Counted from the stretch's first letter, positions 115 to 41,200 are shown. The stretch is 64,000 bases of DNA from Bdellovibrionota bacterium (GCA_050952645.1 JBMNLI010000015.1:1-64000); one strand, 5' to 3'. Notes: a model not told the origin generated them from the sequence alone. Translations and numbers: made by a program.

Positions 115-2250
115 ATGGCTAAAGATAATAATTTCACATTTGTAAAATGTCCATCGTGCAGTAGTTTAGTGCCTGCATTGTCGACTAGATGTAGAATGTG
201 TGGTGCAGATATTCAAGCACAAGATAGCAATGAGAACTCTGAGCCTAAAAAGCCGAGAACATCGAGAGTTAGGCAAAAAACTATGACTATTTCAGAAGAA
301 AAGAAAGATAGCTTTTTAGAAGAGATGGGAGTAAAGAAAGATACGCAAAGTTTTGAAGATGATAACGTAAATCCTCTCTCATATGAAGAAGAAAATTTTG
401 AAGAAAACGAATTAAGTGTAAATGAGCTAGATGTAAATGATCCACTCTCTTCATTTATAGATACCGCTACCGATGAAGAAGACATATTTATTAACGTTCC
501 AAGTGAAAGAGAGCCTCACGTTGAAGAATATTTTGGTGAGCCTATAATTGATGAGCCTATAAGTAGTGAAAATATAAATAAGTCAGATGGTGATGAAGAT
601 TATGAAGCTCCTTTTACTGAGCTTGAACCCGTAAATGAGATTGATAATAAAATGGATAATAAAGAAGATATAAGCGAAGATCTGTTTTCAGATTTAGTAG
701 ATGATATTTTTAGTGAAGACTTAGACTTTGATGATATCTTAGAAGAGGCCGATAAGGCATCGAAAGAACCTATTGGTGATCTAGAGTTATTGTTAAATGA
801 AGATGTAGAGCATGAGGCATTTGAAAAAATAGAAGAATCGCTACCTGAAAAAGATAGTAAAGAAAGCTATGAGAAAAGAGCTAAAGATAATATAAAAAGA
901 GAAATAAACAAAGAAATAAATAGAGAAACGAGAAAAGAAACGAGAGAAAATAAAAAGTTTTCAAATAGTGAAGATTTTTTAAGAGATATTTTTGATGAGG
1001 ACTCGGTAGAAGATAATATCGATAAAGACGACTACTTTGATGTAAGATCTAAAAGAGAAGATAATGCTCACTCAAAAAATAAATATTTTACTAAATCAAA
1101 CGATAAATTCGACGATGAATTTGTTGATGCTACAAAGGCGTTAAATATTAAAGATGATGGGAAAGATATGGATAAAGAAACTAAAGAAAATATAGCGAAT
1201 GCTAAAAGCAATGATAATTTAAAAGCTAATCAAAGAGATAATCAAAGAGACAATCAAAAAGCCGATGAAAAAAATATTGATAAGCTTACAAGAGAAGAAG
1301 AGAGAAGAAGGAAAAATAACGAAAGAAATAAAGAAAGAAAAAGAAAAAAGAAGTTGCGTTTAGCTAATGAAAGGAATGAAGAGAATAAAAATAGGGATAA
1401 TGAAAAAACTCAAAAAGCTACTCAGGAAATAAGTGTAGTTCCTGAGGTTAAAGAAACTTTTGAAAAACAAAAAAGTTTTAATTTAGCTAAAGGAGAGAAG
1501 AAAAACATTAAGCTTAATTTTGGCTCAAAACCTCAAGATAAAAAAGAAGATTATAAGGAAGATTATAAAGAAGATAAAAAAGATAGTATAAGAAAAGATA
1601 AGCCACTAGATGCACAAAAAGAATTAGCAAAAGACTCGCAAAAAGAGAAGCAAAAAGAAGAGCAAAAAGATTCGCAAAAAGAGAAGTTTGAGATAAAAAA
1701 AGAAGATGGAAATGTAAAATCAAAAGCTTTTCAAAGCGAAGATAAAGTCACTAAAAACATTACTGAAAACATTGCTGAAAATAATGTGAAAGAAGATAAT
1801 GCTGAAAATAAAATAGAAATTAAGCTAGAAAAAGTAAAAAAAGATAGCTTTTTAGATATACCAGAGCTAACTAAACCCGTTAAGGAGCTAGTCGATATTA
1901 AAAAGGCTAGTAAAGAAAGGCTTATAGGTTGGATAGTATCGTTTAAGAATCCTTTCGGCGAGGCATATGAGTTAAGAGAAGGAAAGCTTTTCGTAACTAA
2001 TAGCAAGCTTAAGGATAACGATTTTATTATAAAAGATGATTCAATCTCAACGCCTCACGCTTTAATTTCAATCTCTAAAAACGGTGTAAGTATCCAAGAT
2101 TTAATGAGCGATACGGGCGTTTATGTTAAGCATAGCAAAGAAGATAAATATGTAAAACAGGAAATGCCTTTTAAAGTTCAGCATGGGGATTGGATAAAAT
2201 TTGGAGACGTTGAATATTTAATCTCTTTATTAACGTATGTTGGAGAGTAG
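115..2250 (+). CDS. Zinc-ribbon / long charged low-complexity linker / C-terminal FHA-like domain protein, first gene of the T3SS-like operon
   Basis: N-terminal CPSC...CRMC; acidic then Lys/Glu-rich middle; C-terminal GWIVSF..YELREG..SISTPHALI..IQDLMSDTGVYV..HGDWIKFG fits the FHA pattern; RBS aggag upstream. Confidence 0.75.
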   Translation: MAKDNNFTFVKCPSCSSLVPALSTRCRMCGADIQAQDSNENSEPKKPRTSRVRQKTMTISEEKKDSFLEEMGVKKDTQSFEDDNVNPLSYEEENFEENELSVNELDVNDPLSSFIDTATDEEDIFINVPSEREPHVEEYFGEPIIDEPISSENINKSDGDEDYEAPFTELEPVNEIDNKMDNKEDISEDLFSDLVDDIFSEDLDFDDILEEADKASKEPIGDLELLLNEDVEHEAFEKIEESLPEKDSKESYEKRAKDNIKREINKEINRETRKETRENKKFSNSEDFLRDIFDEDSVEDNIDKDDYFDVRSKREDNAHSKNKYFTKSNDKFDDEFVDATKALNIKDDGKDMDKETKENIANAKSNDNLKANQRDNQRDNQKADEKNIDKLTREEERRRKNNERNKERKRKKKLRLANERNEENKNRDNEKTQKATQEISVVPEVKETFEKQKSFNLAKGEKKNIKLNFGSKPQDKKEDYKEDYKEDKKDSIRKDKPLDAQKELAKDSQKEKQKEEQKDSQKEKFEIKKEDGNVKSKAFQSEDKVTKNITENIAENNVKEDNAENKIEIKLEKVKKDSFLDIPELTKPVKELVDIKKASKERLIGWIVSFKNPFGEAYELREGKLFVTNSKLKDNDFIIKDDSISTPHALISISKNGVSIQDLMSDTGVYVKHSKEDKYVKQEMPFKVQHGDWIKFGDVEYLISLLTYVGE

Positions 2251-2252
2251 GT

Positions 2253-3125
2253 TTGAAATTACTTAAATTTATTATAACAATATTTTTTGTTTTTACTTTA
2301 TGCGGTTGTAGTAAGGAAATCGTCGCAAGGGGAATAGACCAAAAACAAGCGAATGAAATAGTTTCTATTTTTGCGAAATCAAATATTACTTCAAAAGTAG
2401 TAGATGACCCTAATGCAAAAAAACTATTAATGGTACAAGTTAGTAAAAAAGATTATAAAGCTGCTACTACAATATTAACTTTAAAAGGATTGCCTAGAGA
2501 TAAATCGGCAAACTTCTCTGAGATGATATCTAGACAAGGGATTTTGCCTGATTCAAAAAGGATAGAAGACCTTAGACTAGATAAAGCTTTAGCTTTAGAG
2601 ATAGAGGATAATTTATCTAAAATGCAAGAGTTTGCAAATGTTAGCGTAGTAGTAAGAAAGGAATATTTAAAGGACGATAAAGCGCCACTTGCTTCTATTT
2701 TAGTAATAAAAAAACCACACGTAGGTTTTTTTGATGAGAGAAAAATATTGAATATCGTAAAGACCGTTATTCCTGAAATAAAAGATGAGAATATAAAAAT
2801 TATAGTCGATACTGAAACGGTTCCTCCACACTTAAGCAACCAGTATGGTAGCATTTCAAAAGAAAAGGGAGAGCAAAAGCTAGTAAGATTAAATAAATTT
2901 TTAGGAAAATTTAGAATTGCTAGCGATGATTATAAGCAATTTAATATATTTTTAGCTATTATAGTTTTAGCTTCCTTATTGGTAGGATTTTTAGGTTCTC
3001 TTTTTTATATTAAATTAAAAAATATAAGGAAAGAGAAATCAAAAATAGTTGAGATATCTTCAAAAGATTTGCTAAAGGAAGCATCTTTTGAAAAAAGAGT
3101 AGTAAAAAAGGGAAATAATAAATAA
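2253..3125 (+). CDS. sctJ: Type III secretion inner-membrane ring lipoprotein, SctJ/YscJ/PrgK family
   Basis: Lipobox LCGC; GIDQKQANEIV, GLPR, GILP, ALALEIE motifs; C-terminal TM helix plus basic tail. Confidence 0.85.
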   Translation: MKLLKFIITIFFVFTLCGCSKEIVARGIDQKQANEIVSIFAKSNITSKVVDDPNAKKLLMVQVSKKDYKAATTILTLKGLPRDKSANFSEMISRQGILPDSKRIEDLRLDKALALEIEDNLSKMQEFANVSVVVRKEYLKDDKAPLASILVIKKPHVGFFDERKILNIVKTVIPEIKDENIKIIVDTETVPPHLSNQYGSISKEKGEQKLVRLNKFLGKFRIASDDYKQFNIFLAIIVLASLLVGFLGSLFYIKLKNIRKEKSKIVEISSKDLLKEASFEKRVVKKGNNK

Positions 3126-3343
3126 TGAAATTAGAAGATTTTCAAAATATGCCAGCATACGACAAAGCTTTAATTTGCAGTGCCGTTTTATTAGATGGCG
3201 AAAAGGCGGTTGCTTTTTTACAACTCGATGCTAAAAATGGGGCTAAATACGTTGAAGCATTAGAGATTTTTATTCGTATGCAAGAAGATATGAGATGCTC
3301 ATTAGCTGCTACTATTTTAAGGGATGCTCTAAATGACTTATAA
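3125..3343 (+). CDS. Small protein, weakly FliG-N-like
   Basis: Translationally coupled to sctJ; KALICSAVLLDGEKAVAFL loosely resembles the FliG N-terminal helices. Confidence 0.4.
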   Translation: MKLEDFQNMPAYDKALICSAVLLDGEKAVAFLQLDAKNGAKYVEALEIFIRMQEDMRCSLAATILRDALNDL

Positions 3344-3683
3344 TAAAGATTACTATGATGATGAGGAGATAATATCTCTTAAATCATATATAGAGAAAAT
3401 TAAAAAAGAAATTATAGAAAGACAAGATATCGTAAAGAAAAGCAAGGAAGAACTAGATGATTTATATGATAGTATGCAAAGTTTAGGAAGTGTATTTAAG
3501 AGAGCAGAAGAGGCGGTAAATTATAGTTTAAGAATACAAGAAAAGAATGTATTAAAAAAACAGATAGATATAAAAAGAAAAAATATAACTGAGCAAGAAA
3601 AAGATTTACAAAAAGCTAAAGAATTATTAAGTATAACGCAAAAAGAATTAGAAGAGCTAATAAAAGAGAGAATGATACAATGA
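3333..3683 (+). CDS. Coiled-coil protein, possible SctO/FliJ stalk
   Basis: 116 aa, entirely helical/coiled-coil composition, located within the T3SS-like operon. Confidence 0.45.
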   Translation: MTYNKDYYDDEEIISLKSYIEKIKKEIIERQDIVKKSKEELDDLYDSMQSLGSVFKRAEEAVNYSLRIQEKNVLKKQIDIKRKNITEQEKDLQKAKELLSITQKELEELIKERMIQ

Positions 3684-4699
3684 ACAGAGCTTCAAACGAT
3701 AACAACTGGGCTTTATGGTCGCCACTAGATGAATTATCTCAAGTGTCAACTAAAGAGATAATTTATTCAAAGGGATTTTTGCAATCGAACCCTGCGACGC
3801 TTTTTCCCTCATTTTCATCATTTTGGCAAAGTTTCTTTGAAAACTATTCGTTTGATATAGCTTTAGTCGATATAAAAAAATCACTAACCGTTCCAGATAA
3901 TATTTCACACTTATATAAAGGTATGATAGATAGAGAGCATATTTATGTAGGTTATGAAGATGATGAGTTTTCATATTTAGGAAACATAGTTATTCCAGCA
4001 GGAGATGAAAAAATTATTGAAATCATTATGGAGTATATGACTAGAAGGTTATTAGCTTCACTTTCTTTTTCTTGGACTGCTTCCGAAAATTCTATAATAT
4101 ATTTTGATGGCAAAACTAAGGAAAGTCCGAAATCTGAAGCTACAATCGTGCTTGATTTAAAAGTATCTGGCAAAAGAGTTAATGTTTATATAATGTGTCC
4201 ATATACGATAGTTAACACTATAGATAAATTATGGAAAGGACAAATTCAAGCCTCGTCGAAATATAGAGAGGTCTCAGAGGTATCTTTAGGTATTCAAATA
4301 GCAGAACTTGCCGTTTCTCCTGCTATGCTTAATGATTATTTAAGTAGTGGTGTAAGAGTGGGGTTAGAAAAGATAGTAAATGATAATGTTTATATAACTA
4401 AGGATAATAAGAAATTTTTAAAAGGACGATTAGTTCGTTCTAGTGATAGATTCGTTGTTGAAATTCTAGGTGGTATAGATACCGTAGCTGAAGCTTTAGA
4501 AGGAATGGTAAATATTTCAATACAACTTGGAAGTGTGCTAGTTCCTGGGTATGTAGTATCTGAGATATCTCAAAAAAATGTTTTATGGGATACGGGTTTA
4601 GAGATTACTAATGAAGTGGAAGTTTATGCAGATAATAAACTTTCTGCACATGCCGTATTGGCTTCTTATGATAAACAATTTGCAATAGAGGTGAAATAG
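3680..4699 (+). CDS. sctQ: SctQ/FliM-FliN-like sorting-platform protein with degenerate SpoA domains
   Basis: Directly upstream of sctR; two SpoA-like segments (GRLVRSSDRFVVEI; AVLASYDKQFAIEV). Confidence 0.6.
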   Translation: MNRASNDNNWALWSPLDELSQVSTKEIIYSKGFLQSNPATLFPSFSSFWQSFFENYSFDIALVDIKKSLTVPDNISHLYKGMIDREHIYVGYEDDEFSYLGNIVIPAGDEKIIEIIMEYMTRRLLASLSFSWTASENSIIYFDGKTKESPKSEATIVLDLKVSGKRVNVYIMCPYTIVNTIDKLWKGQIQASSKYREVSEVSLGIQIAELAVSPAMLNDYLSSGVRVGLEKIVNDNVYITKDNKKFLKGRLVRSSDRFVVEILGGIDTVAEALEGMVNISIQLGSVLVPGYVVSEISQKNVLWDTGLEITNEVEVYADNKLSAHAVLASYDKQFAIEVK

Positions 4700-4702
4700 T
4701 GT

Positions 4703-5419
4703 ATGAATGAGGGTATTATCTTATGTCTATCGATGCTACTTTTAACATCTTTTGTAAGGGTGTTTACCTCTCTTAGTATTTTAAGATATGGTTTAGGTCT
4801 ATATTCTTCAAGTTTTTCTCTTATCATATTTTTACTTTCAATAGCAATGAGTTTTTATATTGCATCGCCTTATATAGAAAAAGCTGGTGGTATATCAAAT
4901 GTAAATAATAATGTAAATAATTATGAAACGATGCAAGAAGAATTTAAACCGTTTATGGAAAAAAATGTAGATAAGGAGTTGTATAATAATTTTAAAAGTA
5001 AACTTAATAAAGTTATCTCTAATGGTGATATAAAAAACAAGCAAGCAAATACAAATGAAGGCAATCAAGAAAACAATCAAGAAAACAATCAAGAAAACAG
5101 GCAAGAAAACATGCAATTAAACGAACAAATAAACGCTAATGAGTCTTTAAAGGGGTTAAATAAGATAAGTAAAAAACAGGAGCTAGATTTACTAACATTT
5201 ACATTCGTTGTTTCGGAACTTAAAGATGCTCTAAAATATGGCGTTATGATTTTAATACCTTTTTTAATAATAGATTTAATAGTGATGAATATTTTTATGT
5301 CGTTAGGTATAAAAGATTTTTCTTATCTTATAGCTTCGCTTCCTATAAAGTTAGGAGTGTTTGTAGCTAGTGACGGACTTAGAATTATAAGTGAAAAGTT
5401 AATTTATTATTACATTTAA
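4703..5419 (+). CDS. sctR: Export gate protein SctR/FliP, divergent
   Basis: LTSFVRVFTSLSILRYGLG and SELKDA..IPFLIIDLIV..SLPIKLGVFVASDG match FliP/SctR signatures. Confidence 0.85.
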   Translation: MNEGIILCLSMLLLTSFVRVFTSLSILRYGLGLYSSSFSLIIFLLSIAMSFYIASPYIEKAGGISNVNNNVNNYETMQEEFKPFMEKNVDKELYNNFKSKLNKVISNGDIKNKQANTNEGNQENNQENNQENRQENMQLNEQINANESLKGLNKISKKQELDLLTFTFVVSELKDALKYGVMILIPFLIIDLIVMNIFMSLGIKDFSYLIASLPIKLGVFVASDGLRIISEKLIYYYI

Positions 5420-5424
5420 ATATT

Positions 5425-5673
5425 ATGTATATTTTTGAAAATTATGAGTTATTAAACATATTATATAAAGTATGCATATATATTATGCTACCTATTATAG
5501 CTTCAATGTTTATTGTTAGCCTGCTTTCTAGTGCTTTACAAAGTGTAATCGCTGTAAAAGATGAAACGATATCGTATTTATTAAAAATTATCGTTATGAT
5601 AGTGCTTTTATATTTTCTTTATCCGATAGCAAAAGAAATTTTAGTTGAACTTTTAGAGGTTTCGTTAAAATGA
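5425..5673 (+). CDS. sctS: Export gate protein SctS/FliQ
   Basis: 82 aa hydrophobic hairpin; LPII..SLL..LQSV..DETISYLLKI resembles the FliQ motif; follows sctR. Confidence 0.75.
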   Translation: MYIFENYELLNILYKVCIYIMLPIIASMFIVSLLSSALQSVIAVKDETISYLLKIIVMIVLLYFLYPIAKEILVELLEVSLK

Positions 5674-6236
5674 TTAGTGTAATAAAAAGTTCATATAAAA
5701 CATCCGTGTTTTTTTTAATCTTTTCGCTTATAGCTTTATTAAGCATGGCTAGCATTAATTTACTGCTTACTTTTAATTTTAATGTTTTGCAAATATCATT
5801 TTTTATAGTTAGCATTATTAGTGTTATTTTTTCCATATTTTTTCTTTGTGAAGTTTTAGAAAATAATTTTTTTATAGAGCATAATGCAAATCTGTTTAGT
5901 ATTTTTTGTGTAGTATGTGCAAGCTATTTTATGTTAGATGAGAAATTCTTAAGTAGCTTGTTAATTTATTTTGTTAGCAGGGCATCGCTAATAAATTATT
6001 TAATGTTATATTTGGCTTTTTTATCTCATATAATAGGTGCTATATTTACAGTAATTGTGAGCTTGTCGTTTTTACTCTATGCTCTAGAGCTGATTTTATC
6101 TAGCATAGTTTCATTTACTTCTTTTAAGAAAGTTTCTTTTTCATTTGTAAAGCAAGTGTCTATTATTTTTATAATTGCTTTGTCCTTTAAGTCTATTCTT
6201 TCGTTAATTTTAAGGGAGGTTGTAGGAAAATGGTAA
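5670..6236 (+). CDS. Degenerate SctT/FliR-like membrane protein
   Basis: Very hydrophobic, 188 aa, in the canonical R-S-T-U position; only weak C-terminal similarity. Confidence 0.5.
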   Translation: MISVIKSSYKTSVFFLIFSLIALLSMASINLLLTFNFNVLQISFFIVSIISVIFSIFFLCEVLENNFFIEHNANLFSIFCVVCASYFMLDEKFLSSLLIYFVSRASLINYLMLYLAFLSHIIGAIFTVIVSLSFLLYALELILSSIVSFTSFKKVSFSFVKQVSIIFIIALSFKSILSLILREVVGKW

Positions 6237-6838
6237 AAGAGTTTTTCCCAACAAAAGAGAGAGTAGATGAGTTAAGAAGCGCTGGGGTTTTTGCGTATTC
6301 TACAACTACTATAAGATTTTTAGTTTTTGCTTTATTTTTAATTTTATTATTTGTTTTTAAAAAAGATGTAAGTTCTTTTTTTAAAATAGCGCAAAGTTTT
6401 TTTAATAATGATGCAGTATCATTAAAAGGGGTAATAAAAATTTTTTTAATATTTAACATTAGTATTTTAATTTTTATTATTTCTTTAATATTGCTTCATA
6501 GTAGGTTTTCTTTTGATTTTAAGAATTTTTTAGGATTTCGTTTAACTACTAATGAGAATAATAAGGAAAGGAATATAGTTTTTGCTATATTATACTCTTT
6601 AAGTGTGATAGCTTATTTGTTTTTAGTGTATATTTTCTCTATGGAGTTTTTAAGTTTATTAAATAATAATTATAGCGATATTTTGCCACTAATATTTAAT
6701 AATATAGATAAGGGAATGTTAATTATTTCTTGTTTATTCGTTTTTTTAGGGGTATTGTCATTTTTATTTAGTAATTTTTCCTTTTTAAATAAGCATAAAA
6801 TGTCGATACAAGATATAGAAGCTGAGAAAAATGATTAA
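6230..6838 (+). CDS. sctU: SctU/FlhB N-terminal membrane domain only
   Basis: FPTKERVDELRSAGVFAYS resembles PTxKK..AR..G.V..S; ends at KMSIQDIEAE (the KMS..E.K.E linker); no NPTH domain. Confidence 0.7.
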   Translation: MVKEFFPTKERVDELRSAGVFAYSTTTIRFLVFALFLILLFVFKKDVSSFFKIAQSFFNNDAVSLKGVIKIFLIFNISILIFIISLILLHSRFSFDFKNFLGFRLTTNENNKERNIVFAILYSLSVIAYLFLVYIFSMEFLSLLNNNYSDILPLIFNNIDKGMLIISCLFVFLGVLSFLFSNFSFLNKHKMSIQDIEAEKND

Positions 6839-6855
6839 AATATTTAAGGATATTT

Positions 6856-7092
6856 ATGGGAAGTGAGATAAAAGAGAACAAGACGCTTTTTAAGCCAGAT
6901 ATATTTAACAAGGCACCGCTTATGGTGCTTATGCCTAAGATGGGTAATTTAGCAGGTCTAGAGGTTTTATACAATTCTTTTTTTGCTAGGTATGATGTTT
7001 TAAAGAAAGAAAGAGAAAAAACGCAAAAATTTATAGATGATGGTGAAGAAAAGATGTTAAGAACGATTATCTCTTGGATTTCGGGTGAATAA
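6856..7092 (+). CDS. Hypothetical protein in the T3SS-like operon
   Basis: 78 aa ORF with RBS aagga, closely spaced between neighbours. Confidence 0.6.
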   Translation: MGSEIKENKTLFKPDIFNKAPLMVLMPKMGNLAGLEVLYNSFFARYDVLKKEREKTQKFIDDGEEKMLRTIISWISGE

Positions 7093-7095
7093 ATT

Positions 7096-7533
7096 ATGAA
7101 GATAGAGGATATAAAAAAGAAATATTTAGATGAAGAGTTAGATGCGATATACTCTTTAGGACTTGCATTTATAGAAAATGGCGACTGTGTAAAAGCGAGA
7201 AATATTTTTGAAGGATTAATAGAGGTTGATAATACGTATCTTCCTGGGATTCAAGGAATGATATATTTAGAGATAGAGGCAAGGGATTTCCAAGATGCTA
7301 TTAAACTATGTCAAAAGGCTTTAGAACTCGAGCCTAACTCTTATGAGGTTATGCTTATGTACGTGTCTTGTTTAATTTCCATAGAAGATTACAGCAAGGC
7401 AGGAACGTATTTAGGTGAAATTTCCGATGCAATCGAAGATAGACTTATAGATGACTATGATATTATTCGTTTTTATAAATCTCAAATAATAAGATACCAG
7501 AATTTAAGCTCTTTGCGTCCAAGGGAGAATTAA
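7096..7533 (+). CDS. TPR protein, SycD/LcrH-like class II T3SS chaperone
   Basis: Acidic 145 aa; LDAIYSLG..GD..KA..IFEGL followed by TPR repeats; last gene of the operon. Confidence 0.65.
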   Translation: MKIEDIKKKYLDEELDAIYSLGLAFIENGDCVKARNIFEGLIEVDNTYLPGIQGMIYLEIEARDFQDAIKLCQKALELEPNSYEVMLMYVSCLISIEDYSKAGTYLGEISDAIEDRLIDDYDIIRFYKSQIIRYQNLSSLRPREN

Positions 7534-8013: not shown

Positions 8014-9402
8014 ATGAAATATGTTGAATCTGAAACGGTCGAGTTAAAAGCTAAATATACAGATAATTTTATTAAGGCTGTAGTCTCTTTTTTAAATAGT
8101 GAAGGGGGGATTGTATATATAGGCATTCAAAATGATGGAACTATAGTAGGTGTTAAAGATATAGATCGTGTGCTTAAAAATATTTCAGATTGCATAACAG
8201 ATCAAATTGAACCGACTCCACGTGGAGAAATTACGAGTGAAATAATATATGAAGAAAATGTCCCAATCATTGCAGTTAATGTAAAAAAGGGAATTAAGCC
8301 TCTTTATTGTATAAAAAAATATGGGTTCTCGACGAAAGGTTGCCTTTCAAGAATAGGAACGACTTGCAAAGAAATGTCATCAGAAGAGATACAGTTTCGA
8401 TATAAATCGCAATTTATTAATGATGATTATATGTTGATAGCTCCGTCAAAGTATGCGCCACTATCATTTAATATGATGAAAATTTTACTTACGAGTAGAG
8501 GTTTTCATATTAATGAAAATTCTTTTGAGGCGTCATTTAATCTCAAGAGAAGTGATGGAGCGTATAACTTGCTTGCGGAAGTTTTAGCAGACAAAAATAT
8601 GGTGCCACTAGTATTTGTAAAATTTTCTGGTGAAGATAAAACTTCTATTTCTCAAAGAAGCAATTATGGTGAGCAGAGTTTACTTCTAGGCTACCAAAAA
8701 ATGAAAGACAGGTTGATTGCTGAGAATATATGTAAAACCGATACTTCAGTTCGTCCTAGAATAGATGAGTATCTATACGATATAAATTGCGTTAATGAAG
8801 CACTCGTTAATATGTTAGTTCATAATGATTGGACGATTACAGAACCGCAAATATCCTTTTATTCTAATCGTGTCGTTTTTACCTCTCATGGAGGACTTCC
8901 GCATGGAATTACTAAAGAAGAATTCTTTAATGGAGTTAGTAGGCCAAGAAATGCGGTGCTAATGAGAGTATTTTTAACACTTGGAATTGTTGAACACACA
9001 GGGCATGGGGTGCCTATAATCGTTAAAAAATATGGAAAAGAGGCTTTTGATATTCATAGTAATTACATTGATGTTTCTATACCTTTTAATCAAAATGTTT
9101 TGGCATCTATGTTAAGCAATGGTGTAAACGGTGTTGTCTTAAATGATATTGATAGTGAAGATATTAGTAGTGCTAGCGTAGATGATAACGCTATGCGTGC
9201 TACTAATGAAGATTTATCTGATACGGAAAAAAAATTGATTTTGGAGTTAGTTCAAGAGCCTGAAATTACATATAGTCAGTTAGCATCAAAGATTGGTATT
9301 TCAAGAAGAACGGTATCAAGAGTTATAAATTCATTAGTTCAGAAAAAATATATTGAAAGAGTAGGTGATAATAAATCTGGATTTTGGAAAATTATACGCT
9401 GA
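8014..9402 (+). CDS. AlbA_2 (Schlafen-like) + HATPase_c_4 + C-terminal winged-HTH protein (often annotated RecG-like or transcriptional regulator)
   Basis: ESETVELK..VSFLNSEGGIVYIG; EALVNMLVHNDW; PRN..LG.VE.TGHG; ITYSQLASKIGISRRTV..IERVG..KSGFW. Confidence 0.85.
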   Translation: MKYVESETVELKAKYTDNFIKAVVSFLNSEGGIVYIGIQNDGTIVGVKDIDRVLKNISDCITDQIEPTPRGEITSEIIYEENVPIIAVNVKKGIKPLYCIKKYGFSTKGCLSRIGTTCKEMSSEEIQFRYKSQFINDDYMLIAPSKYAPLSFNMMKILLTSRGFHINENSFEASFNLKRSDGAYNLLAEVLADKNMVPLVFVKFSGEDKTSISQRSNYGEQSLLLGYQKMKDRLIAENICKTDTSVRPRIDEYLYDINCVNEALVNMLVHNDWTITEPQISFYSNRVVFTSHGGLPHGITKEEFFNGVSRPRNAVLMRVFLTLGIVEHTGHGVPIIVKKYGKEAFDIHSNYIDVSIPFNQNVLASMLSNGVNGVVLNDIDSEDISSASVDDNAMRATNEDLSDTEKKLILELVQEPEITYSQLASKIGISRRTVSRVINSLVQKKYIERVGDNKSGFWKIIR

Positions 9403-9527: not shown

Positions 9528-10202
9528 ATGAATACAGATAAAATAATAAAAAAATATTGGATAATGGGTTTCCCTTATTTTGAATCAAGATTGTTTTTCG
9601 TTCCAAATGATATAGGAAGAAATTATGAGTCGCTCGTAAAAATGAAATTATACGACCCCGATGGAGCACTTATAAATGAAATAAAAATGCTAGTCAGCTC
9701 AAAATGTCCGCTAATTTTAGATTTAGAAAATTTTATGGGAGATTGCAAGCCTGAGTCTGGTATAAAGTACGGTTTGCTAGTTTGTGAAATGGATGAATAT
9801 ATAGATAGCTACCTAAGATTTCAAACTAAAAAAACTGGGGTATTCGTAGGAGAGTTAAATGAATTTAATAATAAAGCACCACTCTTTTTCCCAGTCTATT
9901 TTTCTAAGGAAAGAAATAGCGTTTTGATGCTAAGAAATAGCGAGCTTAGCGATGTTAAAATAGAATATAAAATTTTAAAAGATAATAGGGCACCAGTAAA
10001 AACTATAACTTTACAAAAAATGCACTCTAGAATAATTTTTTTAAATAATGCTTTTAAAGAACTTGTGAGCGATTTTAATGAAAAAGATTTTCAAGCGTAT
10101 TTAAGATTGTCATGCGTTGAAGGTGATTCAGTAGTCGGAGCTCAGATTATAGATTATAATGCTAACGAAAATTTAGAAGGAGATTTTTCTTCTATAGCTT
10201 AA
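9528..10202 (+). CDS. Hypothetical protein
   Basis: 224 aa ORF, no recognised motif. Confidence 0.7.
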   Translation: MNTDKIIKKYWIMGFPYFESRLFFVPNDIGRNYESLVKMKLYDPDGALINEIKMLVSSKCPLILDLENFMGDCKPESGIKYGLLVCEMDEYIDSYLRFQTKKTGVFVGELNEFNNKAPLFFPVYFSKERNSVLMLRNSELSDVKIEYKILKDNRAPVKTITLQKMHSRIIFLNNAFKELVSDFNEKDFQAYLRLSCVEGDSVVGAQIIDYNANENLEGDFSSIA

Positions 10203-10358
10203 AGGTTAATTTTTTTTTAATAGTTTAAATGAAAATTAGAGTTAGCTTTAGCTAGCAGAAACTTTTTTTTAGGAGCGTAGTTAGAGAATATAATTTTTAT
10301 GATTTTGAAAATGATTTTGAAAATATGAAGAACTAAAAATTTAGGAATAAAATAAATT

Positions 10359-11072
10359 ATGAAAAATATTAAATGGGTTTCATTTTGTGCATCGAATAAA
10401 GTGTTAAAAACGGTTATACATTTTTTCCCAAAGGTATTAAATGTAGCGACTCAATATCCCGTGATTTGCAAATTAGGATTATTTGGAGAAGGGAAAGATG
10501 CAGGAACCGTTATGGTAGATGGAGTAAGGATAAATCAAGCTAGTGGGATTTTATTAGACACGGCTTTCCCAAGTCTTAATGGAGATTACGCAGGATTTAT
10601 CGGGCTTTCAATAGAGTTTTCTTTAAGGCAGCAATCTCCTAATTTTGAAAAATTAAGTTCACTTATAGAGCTAGTGTCTTTTTCTTCATCGACTCATTTT
10701 TACCCAACATTAGTTAGCGAAGAAGAAAAGAAAAGAGCGTTTTTAAAATCGTTTCCAGTATTATTTGATACGTTATCGGAGCCAAGTTTGTTATTAGTAA
10801 ATTCGACTCTTACAGAGTTTAGGACGAATGTTCTAAACGTTGAAAATACTCTAGTAGTAGAGAATTTGCAATCATTGCCTCTAACTGCAAAAGAATATAC
10901 TTTAGATGGTTTAGATAATTTTAATGATAAGAGCAGCGTTTTTAACTCTTGTTGGACTAATGGCTACTTATCTTTATTAAGATTTGATAGTGAGATCCCA
11001 GCAGGTGTAGGCGTATATATTTTATGTAGAGATAAGTTGACGAGAAAAATTACTTCTTGTTTTAGTTTATAA
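10359..11072 (+). CDS. Hypothetical protein
   Basis: 237 aa ORF, no recognised motif. Confidence 0.7.
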   Translation: MKNIKWVSFCASNKVLKTVIHFFPKVLNVATQYPVICKLGLFGEGKDAGTVMVDGVRINQASGILLDTAFPSLNGDYAGFIGLSIEFSLRQQSPNFEKLSSLIELVSFSSSTHFYPTLVSEEEKKRAFLKSFPVLFDTLSEPSLLLVNSTLTEFRTNVLNVENTLVVENLQSLPLTAKEYTLDGLDNFNDKSSVFNSCWTNGYLSLLRFDSEIPAGVGVYILCRDKLTRKITSCFSL

Positions 11073-33868: not shown

Positions 33869-36800
33869 ATGAAAAAAATAAATAAAGTGTCTAATATATT
33901 CCTACTATTTTTATTTTCAATAAGTTTTATAGGGGCAAACGTAGCTAGCGCTACTATGACGGATAATCAAGCTAAGCGTGTTGAAAATTTTGGGAGAAGT
34001 GATTTAGGTAGCATGTATTTATTCTATGCGCTAGAGAAAGCGCTGGCCGATAATGGCATTGCAACCGATTTAAAGTGTAAGTATAGTTCGCACCCTAATA
34101 AAGTTCCTGAGGTCGCATATACTGCTTTTGGATTAGATATAAACAATGCTAACGATAAAGCTTCGTTAGAAGCACTTCTTAATAACTCTACTTTTCCTTA
34201 TTGTTCTTCAGAGTTTACTAGAAATATGTATGTAGGTAAAAGTGTAGCGGCTAATGATGAGACGGCAGATGAGTTTTGTAAAGCTATGGGCTACGAAGCG
34301 TATATCGCAGGTTCTGGGCAAACATCTAAATATAGCTCTTATGGTAGTGAGTTAGTAGTGTCTTATGATACAAAAAGTGGTAACTGGAAACGTGCTACTA
34401 ATGGAACTCACTATATTACTTTAACGTGCGGAACTACAAAATGCATGAAAGATGATGATTGCAAAGAGAGTCAATATTGCGCACCAAATGGCACTTGCGT
34501 TTCTTTTAGTAATGATTATTTAGCTGAATGTAATAATGGTAAAGATGATGATGGTGATGGGAAAATAGATGATAAAGACCCAGAGTGTAAAGGTTTCGTA
34601 GGTGGCACTGGGTATATAGATACGATATTGATGAATGAAACACAGGGGCAATATAAAGCATCTTGTGAAACTTACACGATGCCTAAAGATGGTGAAATTT
34701 TAATAAATTTAAAAGATGATGATGTAGCGGTTATAGTAAAAAGAAAAGATGATAATAAAACTGTGATTTTAGCTAAAAGCAACGATCCTTTTCCTTTTGG
34801 AAGTTGCGCAGTGTCTACTCCAATAAATCAAGCAGATGCAAATAATAAAACTAATAAAAGAAATGGTAGTTTAGGTCAAAACGATGCAATTTTTTACGGT
34901 AGAGATGGAAAACTAGTAGCATATTTTCAAGCAGACGGGCATCGCACAGTTCCAGATAAAGCATGGAGTCCTAAGTATGAAGACAGGAAATTAAGAACTG
35001 TAAGTCTTAAGGCTGGTGATGTTGTTTATCTAGCTACAAGGTCTGATAAAACTGCTAACTCAAGAAATCCTAACACCATAGTAAGATTTCAAGAACCACG
35101 TAATTTTAGAGAATCGGTTTGCGATGTAAACTATGGCGATACTACTTCTGGTAAAAGAGTATGCTCAACGCTTGCTAAGCCAGTATGCTCAAAGGGAAGT
35201 TGTGTAGCGTGCCCAGCAAGTCAAGTTTACAACAAGACTCTAAAAGCATGTGTTGAATGTATAAGTGATACCGATTGTAAATCTGGTCAAGCTTGCCAAA
35301 ACAATAAGTGTCTAGATAAATACACTTGTTCAAAAAATACTACTACGGGTAAAGTGGTAGTTAATAAAAATGGAGTAGAGTTAACTACTAAATTAGATAA
35401 GTGTGAAGGCAATAAGCAATACGTGTATACTTGCCCATCGACAACTTCGGTAGGCACTGAGATAGTAGTAAAAGAGACTATTACCAACTGTAAGTATGGT
35501 TGCGATACTAAAACTAAAAAATGCTATGACACAGAGTGTGACGCAAACTACGGTGATACCACTTCGGGCAAAAAAGCTTGTAAAACGATTGCTAAACCAG
35601 TATGTAGCGATGGAAGCTGCGTAGGTTGTCCTAATAGCGAAGTTTATAGCGAAGATAAAAAATCTTGCGTAGCTTGCGTAGTAGATGGCGATTGCGCAAA
35701 GGGGCAAGTGTGCCAAAACAATAAGTGCTTAAATAAATACACTTGTTCAAAAAATACTACTACGGGTAAAGTGATAGTTAATAAAAATGGAGTAGAGTTA
35801 ACTACTAAATTAGATAAGTGTGAAGGCAATAAGCAATACGTGTATACTTGCCCATCGACAACTTCGGTAGGCACTGAGATAGTAGTAAAAGAGACTATTA
35901 CCAACTGTAAGTATGGTTGCGATACTAAAACTAAAAAATGCTATGACACAGAGTGTGACGCAAACTACGGTGATACCACTTCGGGCAAAAAAGCTTGTAA
36001 AACGATTGCTAAACCAGTATGTAGCGATGGAAGCTGCGTAGGTTGTCCTAATAGCGAAGTTTATAGCGAAGATAAAAAATCTTGCGTAGCTTGCGTAGTA
36101 GATGGCGATTGCGCAAAGGGGCAAGTGTGTCAAGACAATAAGTGCTTAGATAAATACACTTGTTCAAAAAATACTACTACGGGTAAAGTGATAGTTAATA
36201 AAAATGGAGTAGAGTTAACTACTAAATTAGATAAGTGTGAAGGCAATAAGCAATACGTGTATACTTGCCCATCGACAACTTCGGTAGGCACTGAGATAGT
36301 AGTAAAAGAGACTATTACCAACTGTAAGTATGGTTGCGATACTAAAACTAAAAAATGCTATGACACAGAGTGTGACGCAAACTACGGTGATACCACTTCG
36401 GGCAAAAAAGCTTGTAAAACGATTGATAAACCAGTATGTAGCGATGGAAGCTGCGTAGGTTGTCCTAATAGCGAAGTTTATAGTGAAGATAAAAAATCTT
36501 GCGTAGCTTGTGTAGAAGATAGTGATTGTGAAGCAGGGCAAGTGTGTCAAGATAATAAGTGTTTAGATGAATATACTTGTGCTAAAGATGATACAGGCAA
36601 AGTGGTAGTTAAGAAAAATGGTGTAGAAATAACGGCTAAATCGAAAACAGATAAGTGTGAAAATGATAAGCAATATGAATACACTTGCTCAGCTACTACT
36701 TTAGTAGGCACTGAGATAACCGTAAAAGAAACTATTACTAATTGTGAACATGGCTGTAATAGTGAAACTAAAAAATGCAATGATGCTGAGTGTGATGTAA

Positions 36801-38020
36801 ATTACGGAGATACTACTGAAGGGAAAAAAGCTTGCTCAGAAGATAAACCAATATGTGAAAATGGAAGTTGCAAAAGCTGTCCAAACAATGAAATATACAA
36901 CATAAGCCAAATGAAATGTGTAGAGTGTAATGTAGATACGGATTGTAAAGACGGCTTGGTTTGCGATAAGGATAATAATAAGTGCGTAGATAAGCAAAAA
37001 GCAGTGATACCACTATTTAATTGTATAATCGATAATTTAGATGGAACCTACACGGCATATTTTGGTTATGAAAACCCTAATGCTGAGGTAATAAATGTTC
37101 AAGCTTGTTCAAATAAGCAAGGAGCTAAGAATATTATAAATAACACTACGACTTATTGTGAGCAACCTAGCGAGTTTGAGGTAGGAACTGTAAAGGGAGC
37201 TTTCTACGTTCCGTTTAGCCAAGGACAAACAGTATCGTGGACTTTACAAAATAATAGCGAGGCTGAAAAAACGGTTTCTGCAACTAGTGCATCTGTAAGA
37301 TGTGCACCGTTAGAGCCTTATGCTCAATGTATAGATAGAAATAAAGATGGCTCATATAAGGCACATTTTGGGTATACTAATAGAAATGGCTTTGAGGTTG
37401 AAATTCCAAATGGTTCTGCTAACAATTTATCGACTAATGAAAATGTTCAGCCTGAGCATTTTGTTGCAGGAAAAATAGATAACGCTTTAAGTATAGATTT
37501 TACAGAAAGTGCTACTTGGAATTTAGATGGAAACAAAGCTACTGCTACTAAGAAGACTAAACCTTGTATAGAGGTAAACTGCACTGAGACTTCAATAGTT
37601 CAAGCTAAGAAATCACTACATGGAGATGAGTTTGTAGAGATGCTTGAAGCTGAAACGGAAAGCTTACTTGAAGAATTAAATCCATTTCCTCAAATAAGAG
37701 ATATCGAAGCTTCGGCAGATAGAAGAATAAACAGAGCTGAGAAAAATAACGATACGATTAAAAAACTTGTCCTTAAGCTTCCAGATGTAATGTTTAATTG
37801 TGATAACGCAGATTTCTGTCCGCTTTACGATAATCAAGGAACATTAAACTTGATTGAAAGAAAGTTAAGAAAACTTCGTAGACAAGTTGGAAGAACGATA
37901 AGACAAAGAAACATCGATGAGAAAACCAGAACTAGACTTCTTAATATCAATGCCCAAATCTTGGCAGGAAAGATAAGCGCACTTAATTCGATCCCAAGAT
38001 TTGCTAATGATTGTGATTAA
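33869..38020 (+). CDS. Large secreted Cys-rich repeat protein A
   Basis: Signal peptide; CNNGKDDDGDGKIDDKDPEC putative metal-binding motif; 139-aa Cys repeats; two YxAxFGYxN modules; basic helical C-terminus. Confidence 0.85.
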   Translation: MKKINKVSNIFLLFLFSISFIGANVASATMTDNQAKRVENFGRSDLGSMYLFYALEKALADNGIATDLKCKYSSHPNKVPEVAYTAFGLDINNANDKASLEALLNNSTFPYCSSEFTRNMYVGKSVAANDETADEFCKAMGYEAYIAGSGQTSKYSSYGSELVVSYDTKSGNWKRATNGTHYITLTCGTTKCMKDDDCKESQYCAPNGTCVSFSNDYLAECNNGKDDDGDGKIDDKDPECKGFVGGTGYIDTILMNETQGQYKASCETYTMPKDGEILINLKDDDVAVIVKRKDDNKTVILAKSNDPFPFGSCAVSTPINQADANNKTNKRNGSLGQNDAIFYGRDGKLVAYFQADGHRTVPDKAWSPKYEDRKLRTVSLKAGDVVYLATRSDKTANSRNPNTIVRFQEPRNFRESVCDVNYGDTTSGKRVCSTLAKPVCSKGSCVACPASQVYNKTLKACVECISDTDCKSGQACQNNKCLDKYTCSKNTTTGKVVVNKNGVELTTKLDKCEGNKQYVYTCPSTTSVGTEIVVKETITNCKYGCDTKTKKCYDTECDANYGDTTSGKKACKTIAKPVCSDGSCVGCPNSEVYSEDKKSCVACVVDGDCAKGQVCQNNKCLNKYTCSKNTTTGKVIVNKNGVELTTKLDKCEGNKQYVYTCPSTTSVGTEIVVKETITNCKYGCDTKTKKCYDTECDANYGDTTSGKKACKTIAKPVCSDGSCVGCPNSEVYSEDKKSCVACVVDGDCAKGQVCQDNKCLDKYTCSKNTTTGKVIVNKNGVELTTKLDKCEGNKQYVYTCPSTTSVGTEIVVKETITNCKYGCDTKTKKCYDTECDANYGDTTSGKKACKTIDKPVCSDGSCVGCPNSEVYSEDKKSCVACVEDSDCEAGQVCQDNKCLDEYTCAKDDTGKVVVKKNGVEITAKSKTDKCENDKQYEYTCSATTLVGTEITVKETITNCEHGCNSETKKCNDAECDVNYGDTTEGKKACSEDKPICENGSCKSCPNNEIYNISQMKCVECNVDTDCKDGLVCDKDNNKCVDKQKAVIPLFNCIIDNLDGTYTAYFGYENPNAEVINVQACSNKQGAKNIINNTTTYCEQPSEFEVGTVKGAFYVPFSQGQTVSWTLQNNSEAEKTVSATSASVRCAPLEPYAQCIDRNKDGSYKAHFGYTNRNGFEVEIPNGSANNLSTNENVQPEHFVAGKIDNALSIDFTESATWNLDGNKATATKKTKPCIEVNCTETSIVQAKKSLHGDEFVEMLEAETESLLEELNPFPQIRDIEASADRRINRAEKNNDTIKKLVLKLPDVMFNCDNADFCPLYDNQGTLNLIERKLRKLRRQVGRTIRQRNIDEKTRTRLLNINAQILAGKISALNSIPRFANDCD
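35287..36570 (+). repeat. About three near-identical 417-bp tandem repeats in protein A
   Basis: Near-identical antisense ORFs at 35393, 35810 and 36227 (offset 417 bp); degenerate partial copies on both sides. Confidence 0.9.
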
Positions 38021-38067
38021 ATAATATTATAATTAGAAATCGAAAAGAAGTTTAGAAAAATTAAAAG

Positions 38068-38124
38068 AGACTAGCTTGCTTAAAGTTTTTAGATTAGACT
38101 TTTTAAGTGGCTAGTCTTTTTTTT
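38068..38124 (+). terminator. Probable intrinsic terminator after protein A
   Basis: agactagc...gctagtct stem followed by a T-run. Confidence 0.6.
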
Positions 38125-38257
38125 ATTTATTTATTATTTATTGCTTAGTTTTGTTTTTTTTAAAATAAACATCTATCGTTATTAGTAAAATTTCTGGTAA
38201 AATAAGCCTTGTGAAATAAGATTTCTTTTTTGAGCATTTTATTAAGGTTTATTTTAT

Positions 38258-41200
38258 ATGAAAAAAATAAATAAAGTATCTAATATATTCTTATTATTTT
38301 TAGTTGCAATAAGTTTTTTAAGAGTAAATGTAGCTAATGCAACGATGTCTACATCCGAAGCTAAACACACCGAAAGTTTCGGAAAAAGCGATTTAGGTAG
38401 CATGTATTTATTCTACACGCTAGAGAAAGCGCTTATAGATAAAGGCATTGCAACCGATTTAAAGTGTAAGTATAGTTCTCACCCTAACAAAGTTCCTGAG
38501 GTCGCATATACTGCTTTTGGATTAGATATAAATAATGCTAATGATAAAGCTTCGTTAGAAGCACTTCTTAATAACTCTACTTTTCCTTATTGTTCTTCAG
38601 AGTTTATTAGAAATATGTATGTAGGTAGAAGTGTAGCGGCTAATGATGAGACGGCAGATGAGTTTTGTAAAGCTATGGGCTACGAAGCGTATATCGTAGG
38701 TTCTGGGCAAACATCTAAATATAGCTCATACGGTAGCGAGTTAGTGGTCTCTTTCAATGTTAATAATTCTAAATGGGAATTACTTCCTAAAGCTAAAGAT
38801 AACAAAGGGACTCATTATATTACCTTAACGTGCGGAACTACAAAATGTATGGAAGATGATGATTGTGAAGGAGGACAAGTATGTAAGCAAGGTGAGTGTT
38901 TAGATGTATACACTTGTTTAAAAGATAAGGCTGGCAGGGTAGTCGTTAGCAAGAATGGTGTAGAGCTTACAAAAGAGGTAAAAACCGATAAGTGTGAAAA
39001 CAATGAACTATACATATATAGTTGTGTAGTAGATAGACTAATAGGCTCAAAGATAGTAATAAGTGAAGAAAAGACCGTTTGCGAGTATGGTTGCGATAAC
39101 AAGACTACGCAATGCTATGCTACAGAGTGTGATGTAAATTATGGTGATACTACGGCAGGTAAAAGGGCGTGTCCTACAATAAGTAGACCCATATGTAATT
39201 GCGATATCGGTCAGTGTAAAGCATGCTCAAATAATGAAATATATAATGAAGCTAAATTAAAATGTGTAGAGTGTAATAAAGATGCAGACTGTAAAAATTC
39301 TGCTAAACCATTTTGTAATTTAAATTTATGTCAAGCTACTTGTAAAACGGATGCACAGTGTAAGGCTAAAAATTTAAGCAGGCAAGTTTGTAATAATGGA
39401 GTTTGCGTAGAGTGCGTTGCCGATAGCGATTGCCAAGGAGGGAAAGTTTGTAAAAATAATAGTTGCTTAGATAAATATACTTGCGTAAAAGATAAAACGG
39501 GTAAAGTGTCTGTTTATAAAAACGGTGTAGAGTTAGAAACGGAAGCAAAAAAGGATAAGTGCGTAGACGATGCACTCTTTATATATAATTGCTCTGCTAC
39601 TACTTTAGTAGGTTCAAAGATAGTTGTAAATGAAGAAAAGACAGTTTGCGAGTATGGTTGCGATACTGAAACTAAAGAATGTTATAAAACCGAATGCGAT
39701 GCAAACTATGGGGATAATGTAGTAGGGAAAAGAGCTTGCAAAGTGCTTTCATCTCCAGTTTGCGAAAATGGAAATTGTGTAGCGTGTCCTAATAGTAAAG
39801 TTTATAACTCTGCTAAAAAATCTTGCGTCGAGTGTAATACGAATGCGAATTGTAAAGAAGAAGCAAGGCCTATATGCTTAAGCGATAATACTTGTGGTTG
39901 CAGTGTAAACGATGATTGCCCTTCGGCTAGGCCAGTTTGCGAAAATAAAAATTGCGTAGCGTGTCCTAGTAGTAAAGTTTATAACTCTGCTAAAAAATCT
40001 TGTGTCGAGTGTAATACGAATGCGAATTGTAAAGAAGAAGCAAGGCCTATATGTTTAAGCGATAACACTTGTGGTTGTAATGTAAACGATGATTGCCCTG
40101 TAGATAATCCTTTTTGTAATACCGCTATACATCAATGTACTAATAAATGCGTTAAAAATGTAGATTGTAAAAATAAAGATTTAAGCAAACCAGTTTGCGA
40201 TAATGGAGTTTGCGTAGAGTGCGTTGCCGATAGCGATTGCCAAGGAGAGAAAGTTTGCAAAAATAATAGTTGCTTAGATAAATATACTTGCGCAAAAGAT
40301 GATGCAGGTAAAGTGTCTGTTTATAAAAATGGTGTAGAGTTAGAAACGGAAGCAAAAAAGGATAAGTGCGTAGACGATGCACTCTTTATATATAATTGCT
40401 CTGCTACTACTTTAGTAGGTTCAAAGATAGTTGTAAATGAAGAAAAGACAGTTTGCGAGTATGGTTGCGATACTGAAACTAAAGAATGTTATAAAACCGA
40501 ATGCGATGCAAACTATGGGGATAATGTAGTAGGGAAAAGAGCTTGCAAAGTGCTTTCATCTCCAGTTTGCGAAAATGGAAATTGTGTAGCGTGTCCTAAT
40601 AGTAAAGTTTATAACTCTGCTAAAAAATCTTGCGTCGAGTGTAATACGAATGCGAATTGTAAAGAAGAAGCAAGGCCTATATGTTTAAGCGATAATACTT
40701 GTGGTTGCAGTGTAAACGATGATTGCCCTGTAGCTAATCCAGTTTGCGAAAATGGGAGTTGTGTAGCGTGCCCTAATAGTAAGGTTTATAACTCTGCTAA
40801 AAAATCTTGTGTCGAGTGTAATACGAATGCGAATTGTAAAGAAGAAGCAAGGCCTATATGTTTAAGCGATAACACTTGTGGTTGCAGTGTAAACGATGAT
40901 TGCCATGCAGATAATCCTTTTTGTAATACCGCTATACATCAATGTACTAATAAATGCGTTAAAAATGTAGATTGTAAAAATAAAGATTTAAGCAAACCAG
41001 TTTGCGATAATGGAGTTTGCGTAGAGTGCGTTGCCGATAGCGATTGCCAAGGAGAGAAAGTTTGCAAAAATAATAGTTGCTTAGATAAATATACTTGCGC
41101 AAAAGATGATGCAGGTAAAGTGTCTGTTTATAAAAACGGCTTGGAGATAACGGTAAAATTAGATAAGTGTGAAAACGATAAGCAATACGTATATAGCTGT

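Follow-up and report, generated by a model that had tools for sequence, protein, structure and literature searches.

The operon described here, eleven open reading frames (ORFs) at positions 115 to 7,533 of a 64,000-nucleotide (64-kb) stretch of Bdellovibrionota DNA (JBMNLI010000015.1:1-64000, the whole of which is hereafter the window), has its closest described counterpart in T3SS*, the T3SS (type III secretion system) that Myxococcus xanthus encodes in the "Myxo long" locus (MXAN_2434-2464) defined by Abby and Rocha 2012. A preliminary description of the operon credited the M. xanthus T3SS with a part in contact-dependent prey killing; prey lysis and the toxicity of Tips 1-3 both require T3SS*, but killing as such depends on the Tad pilus Kil (PMC12075869). 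Kil recruits T3SS*, with which a joint machine has been proposed (PMC12075869, PMC10433427), and it also assembles without T3SS* (PMC12075869). T3SS* has SctN, SctL, SctD and SctI, and its cluster is separate from that of Kil (PMC12075869, PMC3459982, PMC10433427, PMC10469934, PMC12428579, PMC8460266), which has a secretin of its own, KilC (PMC10433427, PMC8460266). Kil and T3SS* appear to occur together in one myxobacterial suborder only (PMC12428579), and both the exit of T3SS* cargo and the formation of a single complex with Kil are stated to be open (PMC12075869, PMC10433427, PMC12428579).

The operon in the window belongs to a needle-less type III core that is under selection, is genetically joined to a Tad pilus, is of the Myxococcus kind and stands outside the canonical injectisome family. 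It bears on how T3SS* cargo gets out and on whether T3SS* forms one complex with the Kil Tad pilus. In the literature searched, with most subscription journals outside its coverage, we found no description of a Tad operon containing sctV or of this lineage's system. Like the Myxo long locus, it is secretin-less, has no needle gene that could be found and has FHA proteins nearby, and it encodes SctJ, a FliG-like protein, SctO, Q, R, S, T and U, a small protein and a tetratricopeptide repeat (TPR) protein, here minus SctL, SctN and a few others. A Tad pilus co-occurs in both cases, and an extra ATPase of sister orders has its closest outside kin in myxobacterial SctN. The two differ in that the Myxo long locus encodes its own SctL, its own SctN and an SctU of full length that has an NPxH site, none of which is in our operon, where SctU lacks its C-terminal domain, the FliG-like protein is cut to 72 amino acids (aa), SctL and SctN are unlinked or lost, and no Tad secretin was found. 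Moreover, sctV here follows tadC, whereas T3SS* is encoded apart from Kil.

With canonical injectisomes (Yersinia Ysc, Hrp2 and rhizobial Rhc) the system shares SctJ, O, Q, R, S, T, U and V and a TPR protein similar to YscY, but it has no SctC, no SctD or SctF was found, SctU has no switch, and its SctV stands apart from YscV, HrcV and RhcV. With the flagellar export apparatus and C-ring it shares an SctQ predicted to have a FliM middle domain and two SPOA domains, FliG- and FliJ-like genes, and homology to FliP, FliQ, FliR, FlhB and FlhA; it differs in its SctJ-type lipoprotein ring, in an SctV outside the FlhA clade and in the presence of a separate flagellar set in the genome. Tad/Flp (type IVc) loci likewise hold cpaE, flp, cpaB, cpaF, tadB and tadC in one operon. 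Here, in contrast, no CpaC/RcpA secretin was found, and the Tad operon runs into sctV and a pseudokinase gene and, in many relatives, continues through the entire export operon.

Linkage of the operon to Tad pilus genes

The window opens a contig (C15) of a 1.95-Mb source genome (93.75% complete), and its start is the end of that contig, a point overlooked in the preliminary description; the contig begins 114 nt 5' of the operon, and no upstream gene context is readable in this genome. A genome-wide search, as proposed there, placed SctV on contig C12 and an SctL-SctN pair on C3, with secretins of the GspD and PilQ kinds only. The C12 gene (C12:114771-116855), the third SctV of the genome, lies directly behind cpaE, flp, cpaB, cpaF, tadB and tadC. 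Directly 3' of it is the gene for a protein of 776 aa, the pseudokinase, so called because its relatives have HEAT repeats and a degenerate kinase. The proposed synteny check was likewise carried out, and relatives from the same order and from sister orders keep both the operon and the link between Tad genes and sctV. The gene directly 5' of the operon-type sctV is tadC in 10 of 10 loci from the order and in 9 of 10 sister-order loci with upstream DNA. In 11 of the 15 sister-order genomes examined, the genes for SctV, the pseudokinase, a multi-FHA protein, a zinc-ribbon FHA protein, SctJ and SctQ form one uninterrupted series, in most cases with the Tad genes ahead of it; among the other four, two reach the SctJ or the FHA gene, one stops at a contig break, and one is split. 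One genome of the order (G004) holds a single unbroken run of PP2C, FHA and Ser/Thr kinase genes, Tad genes, sctV, pseudokinase gene, multi-FHA gene and operon. Where order relatives are split, the break falls after the pseudokinase, as in the source genome. The kinase, PP2C and FHA genes that head the cluster in relatives are present in the source genome but relocated. All 20 relatives have the multi-FHA gene 5' of the operon, but a search of the source genome did not find it, the best match being a different FHA protein; because the contig starts 114 nt upstream, loss and an assembly gap are indistinguishable for this gene.

Together with Tad, SctV and phospho-signalling genes the operon makes up a larger cluster, of which it is the distal half. 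The preliminary description had taken it for a minimal, further-reduced or repurposed T3SS derivative; the resemblance to the needle-less Myxococcus system stands, but the view of a minimal stand-alone unit is not supported, given the larger cluster and a second needle-less system in the genome. The SctV motifs RLIL and DGAMKFVQGD, which we take to be channel motifs, are invariant across 10 sequences, and CpaF retains its Walker A, acidic and His boxes.

We consider it moderately probable that the products of this cluster form an inner-membrane type III exporter working beneath a Tad pilus, like Kil and T3SS* of Myxococcus but co-encoded. Because they form one gene cluster in many relatives, the operon and the Tad pilus are likely a single contact machine. 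The inner-membrane ring, gate subunits and cytoplasmic ring of the operon would likely assemble with the SctV encoded behind tadC, and proteins would likely be exported to the periplasm under the pilus for contact-dependent delivery. Export may be proton-driven and supplied by SctV, given the invariance of its presumed channel motifs. With no needle, no substrate switch would be needed, which could be why the SctU C-terminal domain was dropped. The SctX/SctY-like pair described below may dock on SctV, and the linked Ser/Thr kinase, PP2C phosphatase, pseudokinase and FHA proteins may time assembly on contact. Cargo might then cross the outer membrane on the pilus or via a borrowed secretin, PilQ or GspD, and the target would presumably be other bacteria. 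With a dedicated SctL and SctN apparently lost in the order, the gate would depend on proton-motive force by itself or borrow the ATPase of the second system.

Several observations weigh against an exporter beneath the pilus. Of the 23 order relatives, 22 have the operon at a distance from the Tad genes, as does the source genome, G004 being the sole exception. SctT, SctU and SctV are fast-evolving, and SctV of family f28 is degenerate and nearly unrecognisable (5.8e-15). Some lineages retain the half with FHA protein, SctJ, SctQ and SctV while SctR to SctU are lost or moved; G067 is without an operon-type SctR, G091, G053 and G054 are without R to U behind SctQ, and the operon of G025 has no sctJ. 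Searches of six genomes turned up no Tad or T3SS secretin, and the source genome also has a second Tad cluster, a type IVa pilus and a type II secretion system (T2SS), each another possible partner.

The wider claim of a phylum-wide hybrid, in which the Tad pilus replaces the type III needle and secretin and, in this order, the gate works without its own ATPase or substrate switch, is one that we hold as tentative and somewhat doubtful. If true, the hybrid would count as a minimal type III exporter made by nature, and its branch might be at least as deep as the myxobacterial systems.

Selection, ring proteins and export gate

The eleven ORFs are intact and tightly coupled, with gaps of at most 17 nt or short overlaps, and their coordinates, strand and order (Table 1) are as first described, per ORF calls, Pfam and NCBIfam searches and comparison with relatives. 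Direct profile matches cover the FHA protein, SctJ, the SPOA protein, SctR, SctS, the N-terminal part of SctU and a TPR protein of the SycD/SctY class.

Table 1. Features of the operon in the window, with the ratio of nonsynonymous to synonymous substitution rates (dN/dS) for individual genes.
Feature	Position	Strand	Evidence	dN/dS
FHA protein, 711 aa	115..2250	+	PF00498 1.8e-8, PF16697 2.4e-6	
SctJ inner-membrane ring lipoprotein	2253..3125	+	YscJ_FliF 1.1e-10; TIGR02544 8.3e-23	0.27
Helical protein, 72 aa, likely a FliG-like N-terminal domain alone	3125..3343	+	profile match to myxobacterial FliG-like protein	0.10
SctO/FliJ-like stalk, 116-aa coiled coil	3333..3683	+	position and profile matches of relatives	0.12
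SctQ	3680..4699	+	FliMN_C 1.5e-5; fold model	
SctR/FliP export-gate subunit	4703..5419	+	PF00813 (FliP) 3.3e-32	0.14
SctS/FliQ export-gate subunit	5425..5673	+	PF01313 (Bac_export_3) 6.4e-8; TIGR01403 7.2e-6	
Multi-helix membrane protein, 188 aa, likely shortened SctT/FliR	5670..6236	+	between sctS and sctU	
SctU, four transmembrane helices, without cytoplasmic NPTH domain	6230..6838	+	PF01312 (Bac_export_2) 5e-11, positions 5-218 of 335	0.67
Conserved protein, 78 aa, SctX-like by position	6856..7092	+	alignment; predicted TPR partner	
TPR chaperone, 145 aa, SctY/SycD class	7096..7533	+	TIGR02552 5.7e-7, NF052415 2.1e-4	0.09

Compared with a same-genus genome (Jukes-Cantor-corrected, FHA gene left out), dN/dS is below 1 for all ten operon genes tested, at 0.09-0.36 in every one but SctU. 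The ten genes are under purifying selection, and the dN/dS run bears out the earlier suggestion of selection rather than decay. The lineage is an uncultured phylum throughout which SctQ of the operon type is found, in single copy, in 115 of 124 genomes and in 71 of 73 high-quality ones. Long branches, the truncated SctU with its higher ratio, and degenerate copies in f28, G041 and G067 are what one would expect of a decaying relic of an injectisome or of a duplicated flagellar export operon. Against this, the single-copy retention, the low ratios in nine genes, the complete flagellar set elsewhere in the genome and the position of SctV outside the FlhA clade largely refute decay, which we regard as very improbable.

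The 711-aa protein has an N-terminal CxxC..CxxC zinc ribbon, a long acidic low-complexity linker and a C-terminal FHA domain, and its gene is present in 20 of 20 relative loci. It is not a ring-forming SctD, since a hydropathy scan gives no membrane segment. The ring protein, as proposed earlier, is of the SctJ rather than the FliF type, and a separate FliF is encoded on C10. SctJ starts at TTG, has a lipobox-like LCGC and a C-terminal transmembrane segment at 227-245 (transmembrane scan), and was found in 38 of 41 genomes.

The 72-aa protein is encoded in 20 of 20 loci. Its profile resembles the N-terminal ~70 residues of the myxobacterial protein that follows sctJ and bears FliG_M and FliG_C (best E 8e-4, Z=1000), which makes it likely, from sequence comparison, to be a FliG-like ring adaptor reduced to its N-terminal domain. 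Direct comparison with the source genome's own FliG gave no match, and a PDB profile search and Atlas returned nothing. The 116-aa coiled coil has no direct profile match in the source genome itself, and same-position genes in relatives match FliJ or YscO-like profiles (PF02050/PF16789, best 1.6e-10); it was found in 13 of 20 order loci and is missing from 7. SctQ yielded a confident fold model (predicted local distance difference test, pLDDT, 89.6; predicted template modelling score 0.83), for which Foldseek retrieved FliM(SPOA)::FliN at 5.5e-9 and the FliM middle domain at 6.6e-5. We confidently assign it, on the model, a CheC-like FliM middle domain followed by two SPOA domains, the architecture of a FliM-FliN fusion.

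At the 3' end, the 78-aa and TPR proteins are predicted to be a binding pair like SctX and SctY, a chaperone pair in which a small protein is bound by a YscY-like TPR protein. The complex scored 0.84 against 0.01 for the best control, with contacts agreeing by at least 83% between runs and partner pLDDT of at least 71. A score of 0.84 is reached by 116 of 157 solved complexes and by 2 of 215 mismatched pairs, although resemblance to chaperone complexes of known structure could also yield such a score. The two genes are fused in G021, and the TPR profile matches YscY (E 2.1e-5, probability 77). The 78-aa protein had no sequence match to YscX or to the myxobacterial gene in the same position, and a PDB search and Atlas gave nothing usable for it.

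The gate set is represented in the window by profile-matched R, S and U, on C12 by V, and for T by position and sister-order matches. The 188-aa protein is likely a shortened SctT/FliR because longer same-position genes from sister orders match Bac_export_1 (PF01311), 3 of the 6 tested doing so, the best at 4e-13; a seventh candidate at that position proved to be an unrelated transferase. The 188-aa protein itself, whose sequence family has 248 representatives, was blank in Pfam, in PDB profiles and in hhalign against a 4-sequence FliR/SctT alignment. Its model resembles the FliR fold weakly (Z 6.3, root-mean-square deviation 5.4, 159 aligned; best Foldseek E 2.1), in fold searches swamped by generic helical bundles. 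The NPTH site of the SctU cytoplasmic domain is an autocleavage site that acts as a switch. SctU ends before this domain in all 21 sequences (15 of 15 from the order and 6 of 6 from sister orders), a truncation that the preliminary description overlooked; myxobacterial SctU retains the NPxH site. With no SctU switch, a short SctT and perhaps no ATPase, the system is a natural test of how far the gate can shrink.

In SctR, a methionine loop serves as the gasket of the gate. In an alignment of 34 FliP/SctR sequences, the loop position of the operon's SctR is polar (GIKDF), and the two methionines are present in 0 of 20 SctR of the operon system as against 5 of 6 in the second system. They are also missing from the functional HrcR and from the SctR of the myxobacterial short locus, and we rejected their loss as a sign of non-function. 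These features of the gate are also what might be seen in a remnant without protein export, a membrane scaffold or contact sensor that would position and switch the Tad pilus by FHA and phosphothreonine, with SctV as an ion-conducting or anchoring ring. Such a role would agree with the loss of the SctU domain in every sequence and with the FHA proteins, the 72-aa protein and SctQ being the most constant parts, SctR to SctU, SctO and SctJ having been lost or moved in several lineages. It would also suit two genomes, G023 and G034 (97% and 94% complete), that keep the system and in which no FliI/SctN was found. Yet SctR, S, T and U are under selection in this family, SctR is above a strict cut-off in at least 66 of the 124 genomes, HrcR and the short-locus SctR do without the same methionines, and the chaperone pair and SctV channel motifs are retained. 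We judge a scaffold or sensor without export to be unlikely.

ATPases and other systems in the genome

SctL and SctN are absent from the operon in all loci read. The source genome has a single intact SctL-SctN pair, on C3 and with normal ATPase motifs, alongside two needle-less systems. Three ATPases are common in sister orders, namely FliI and those of two stand-alone SctL-SctN pairs. Two SctN clades were recovered, each with a Shimodaira-Hasegawa-like approximate likelihood ratio test (SH-aLRT) value of 100, and all six order sequences tested, the source genome's included, fall in one. The other, candidate clade is present in 25 of 33 sister-order genomes and in 0 of 91 from the source genome's order, at a cut-off chosen after the source genome's best scores (2.4e-143 and 5.8e-130) had been seen. 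Distances in the candidate clade correlate with those of the operon SctV at a Spearman coefficient of 0.91 and with those of the second SctV at 0.59, the corresponding values for the retained clade being 0.68 and 0.61. The comparison covers 7 genomes in 21 pairs that are not independent, and the result probably leans on G054. The candidate clade is missing where the system is reduced (G041, G042 and G067) and present in f28. Among outside sequences, those closest to the extra ATPase of the sister orders are for the most part SctN of myxobacteria and bradymonads, at ~47-53% identity.

A dedicated SctL-SctN pair was likely lost in the source genome's order, judging from these sequence comparisons. 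Two points count against this: the candidate clade is assigned to the operon indirectly, and the candidate ATPase is missing from G059 (97% complete), whose operon is whole. One order genome, G120, has three ATPase matches. A fifth ATPase match of the source genome (C10) was identified as Rho, and a weak one in G023 as part of an F-type ATPase operon.

The intact C3 pair, the complete-looking T2SS operon and the retention of SctO in the window leave room for a needle-less exporter that would be independent of the Tad pilus except for shared regulation, would use the same SctL and SctN as the second system and would release proteins to the periplasm for the T2SS; the assembly of M. xanthus Kil without T3SS* (PMC12075869) would fit as well. 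Such independence is hard to reconcile with a SctV that stays behind tadC even where the rest of the operon has moved. SctO, moreover, is missing from 7 of 20 order operons, and the C3 ATPase falls in the retained clade, not the candidate one (SH-aLRT 100), and in G015 lies ~9 kb from the SctV of the second system. We find independence of the pilus improbable, and co-encoded export beneath it remains the explanation we favour.

The source genome has three FlhA/SctV (FHIPEP), three FliP/SctR, three FliF/SctJ and two FliI/SctN genes, so that the operon's genes are not the only copies of their kind. A complete flagellar set (FliF, G, H, I, J, M, N, P, Q, R, FlhA and FlhB) lies elsewhere in it, which agrees with the earlier view of the operon as non-flagellar and distinct from the flagellar system. 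Its fliG is separated from fliF-fliH-fliI, on another contig (C10:312000-316000; C12:30862-31866).

Two PF00263 secretins only were found in the source genome, with the domain layouts of GspD and PilQ, in a search that matched the control genomes; five further genomes have at most two each, of similar sizes and not domain-typed. SctF (PF09392) was found in 0 of 21 genomes and SctD (TIGR02500) in 0 of 21 above the cut-off, in searches to which control genomes gave no match either. The second Tad cluster of the source genome (C9:48100-56100) comprises cpaE, flp, cpaB, cpaF, tadB, tadC and a TadG-like gene, with no secretin gene beside it and type IVa pilus assembly genes adjoining.

The second needle-less system, kept in sister orders, is split over C17:277500-283900 (L022) and C10:227000-232300 (L023) and consists of a sigma factor, SctJ, a SPOA protein, a 110-aa gene, SctV and a TPR protein, together with an SctI-like gene, SctR, S and T. 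Its SctU is encoded as two genes, split at the autocleavage position with a histidine-kinase gene between them (C17:20177-23062; L024:8175-11063; also L286, L287 and L288). The N-terminal half ends in VIIVD in the source genome, and the layout is the same in G016, G051 and G063. A group II intron reverse transcriptase lies between its sctR and sctS (L023:10116-11417), and an ORF at 58718-60019 of the window has the same length and start.

Descent and genomic surroundings

Quick trees place the operon-linked SctV outside the FlhA clade (SH-aLRT 97-99) and, on long branches, outside the clade of myxobacterial and canonical SctV (SH-aLRT 93-96). A clade of operon SctV with the Myxo long locus was not rejected by the approximately unbiased test (p 0.2); the last two trees held 25 and 17 of 61 SctV/FlhA rows, with most long branches left out. 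Gene order, the FliG-like gene and the outside relatives of the ATPase point to kinship with Myxo long, a kinship that the ATPase tree leaves open, and profile homologue searches with SctQ and SctR returned no named myxobacterial match. The system adds new taxa for the study of the transition from flagellum to injectisome. A 9.8-Mb genome, G128 (L249-L254), has six FlhA/SctV genes, of which four form their own clade and several have TPR and kinase genes as neighbours.

Six DNA runs, each from a different study and labelled digester, landfill, bioreactor or wastewater, hold 0.27-0.44 of the sequence words of the stretch, two possible source runs having been excluded, and no holder was listed among RNA runs. 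Promoter and terminator counts in the stretch were no higher than in shuffled sequence. In relatives, the TPR end of the operon often has two sigma-70-like genes and a gene of ~113 aa beside it (L057:3258-5754 and equivalents in many others). In the window, the gene directly 3' of the operon (8014-9402) encodes a protein with Schlafen/AlbA_2, HATPase_c_4 and helix-turn-helix domains, and in relatives it lies outside the operon. The two ORFs that follow (9528-11072) have no Pfam or NCBIfam match, and their homologues in G015 lie between the second SctV cluster and sctL-sctN. Farther downstream, at 33869-43234, are two very large paralogues of 1383 and 1658 aa, secreted-looking and near-identical at their starts.

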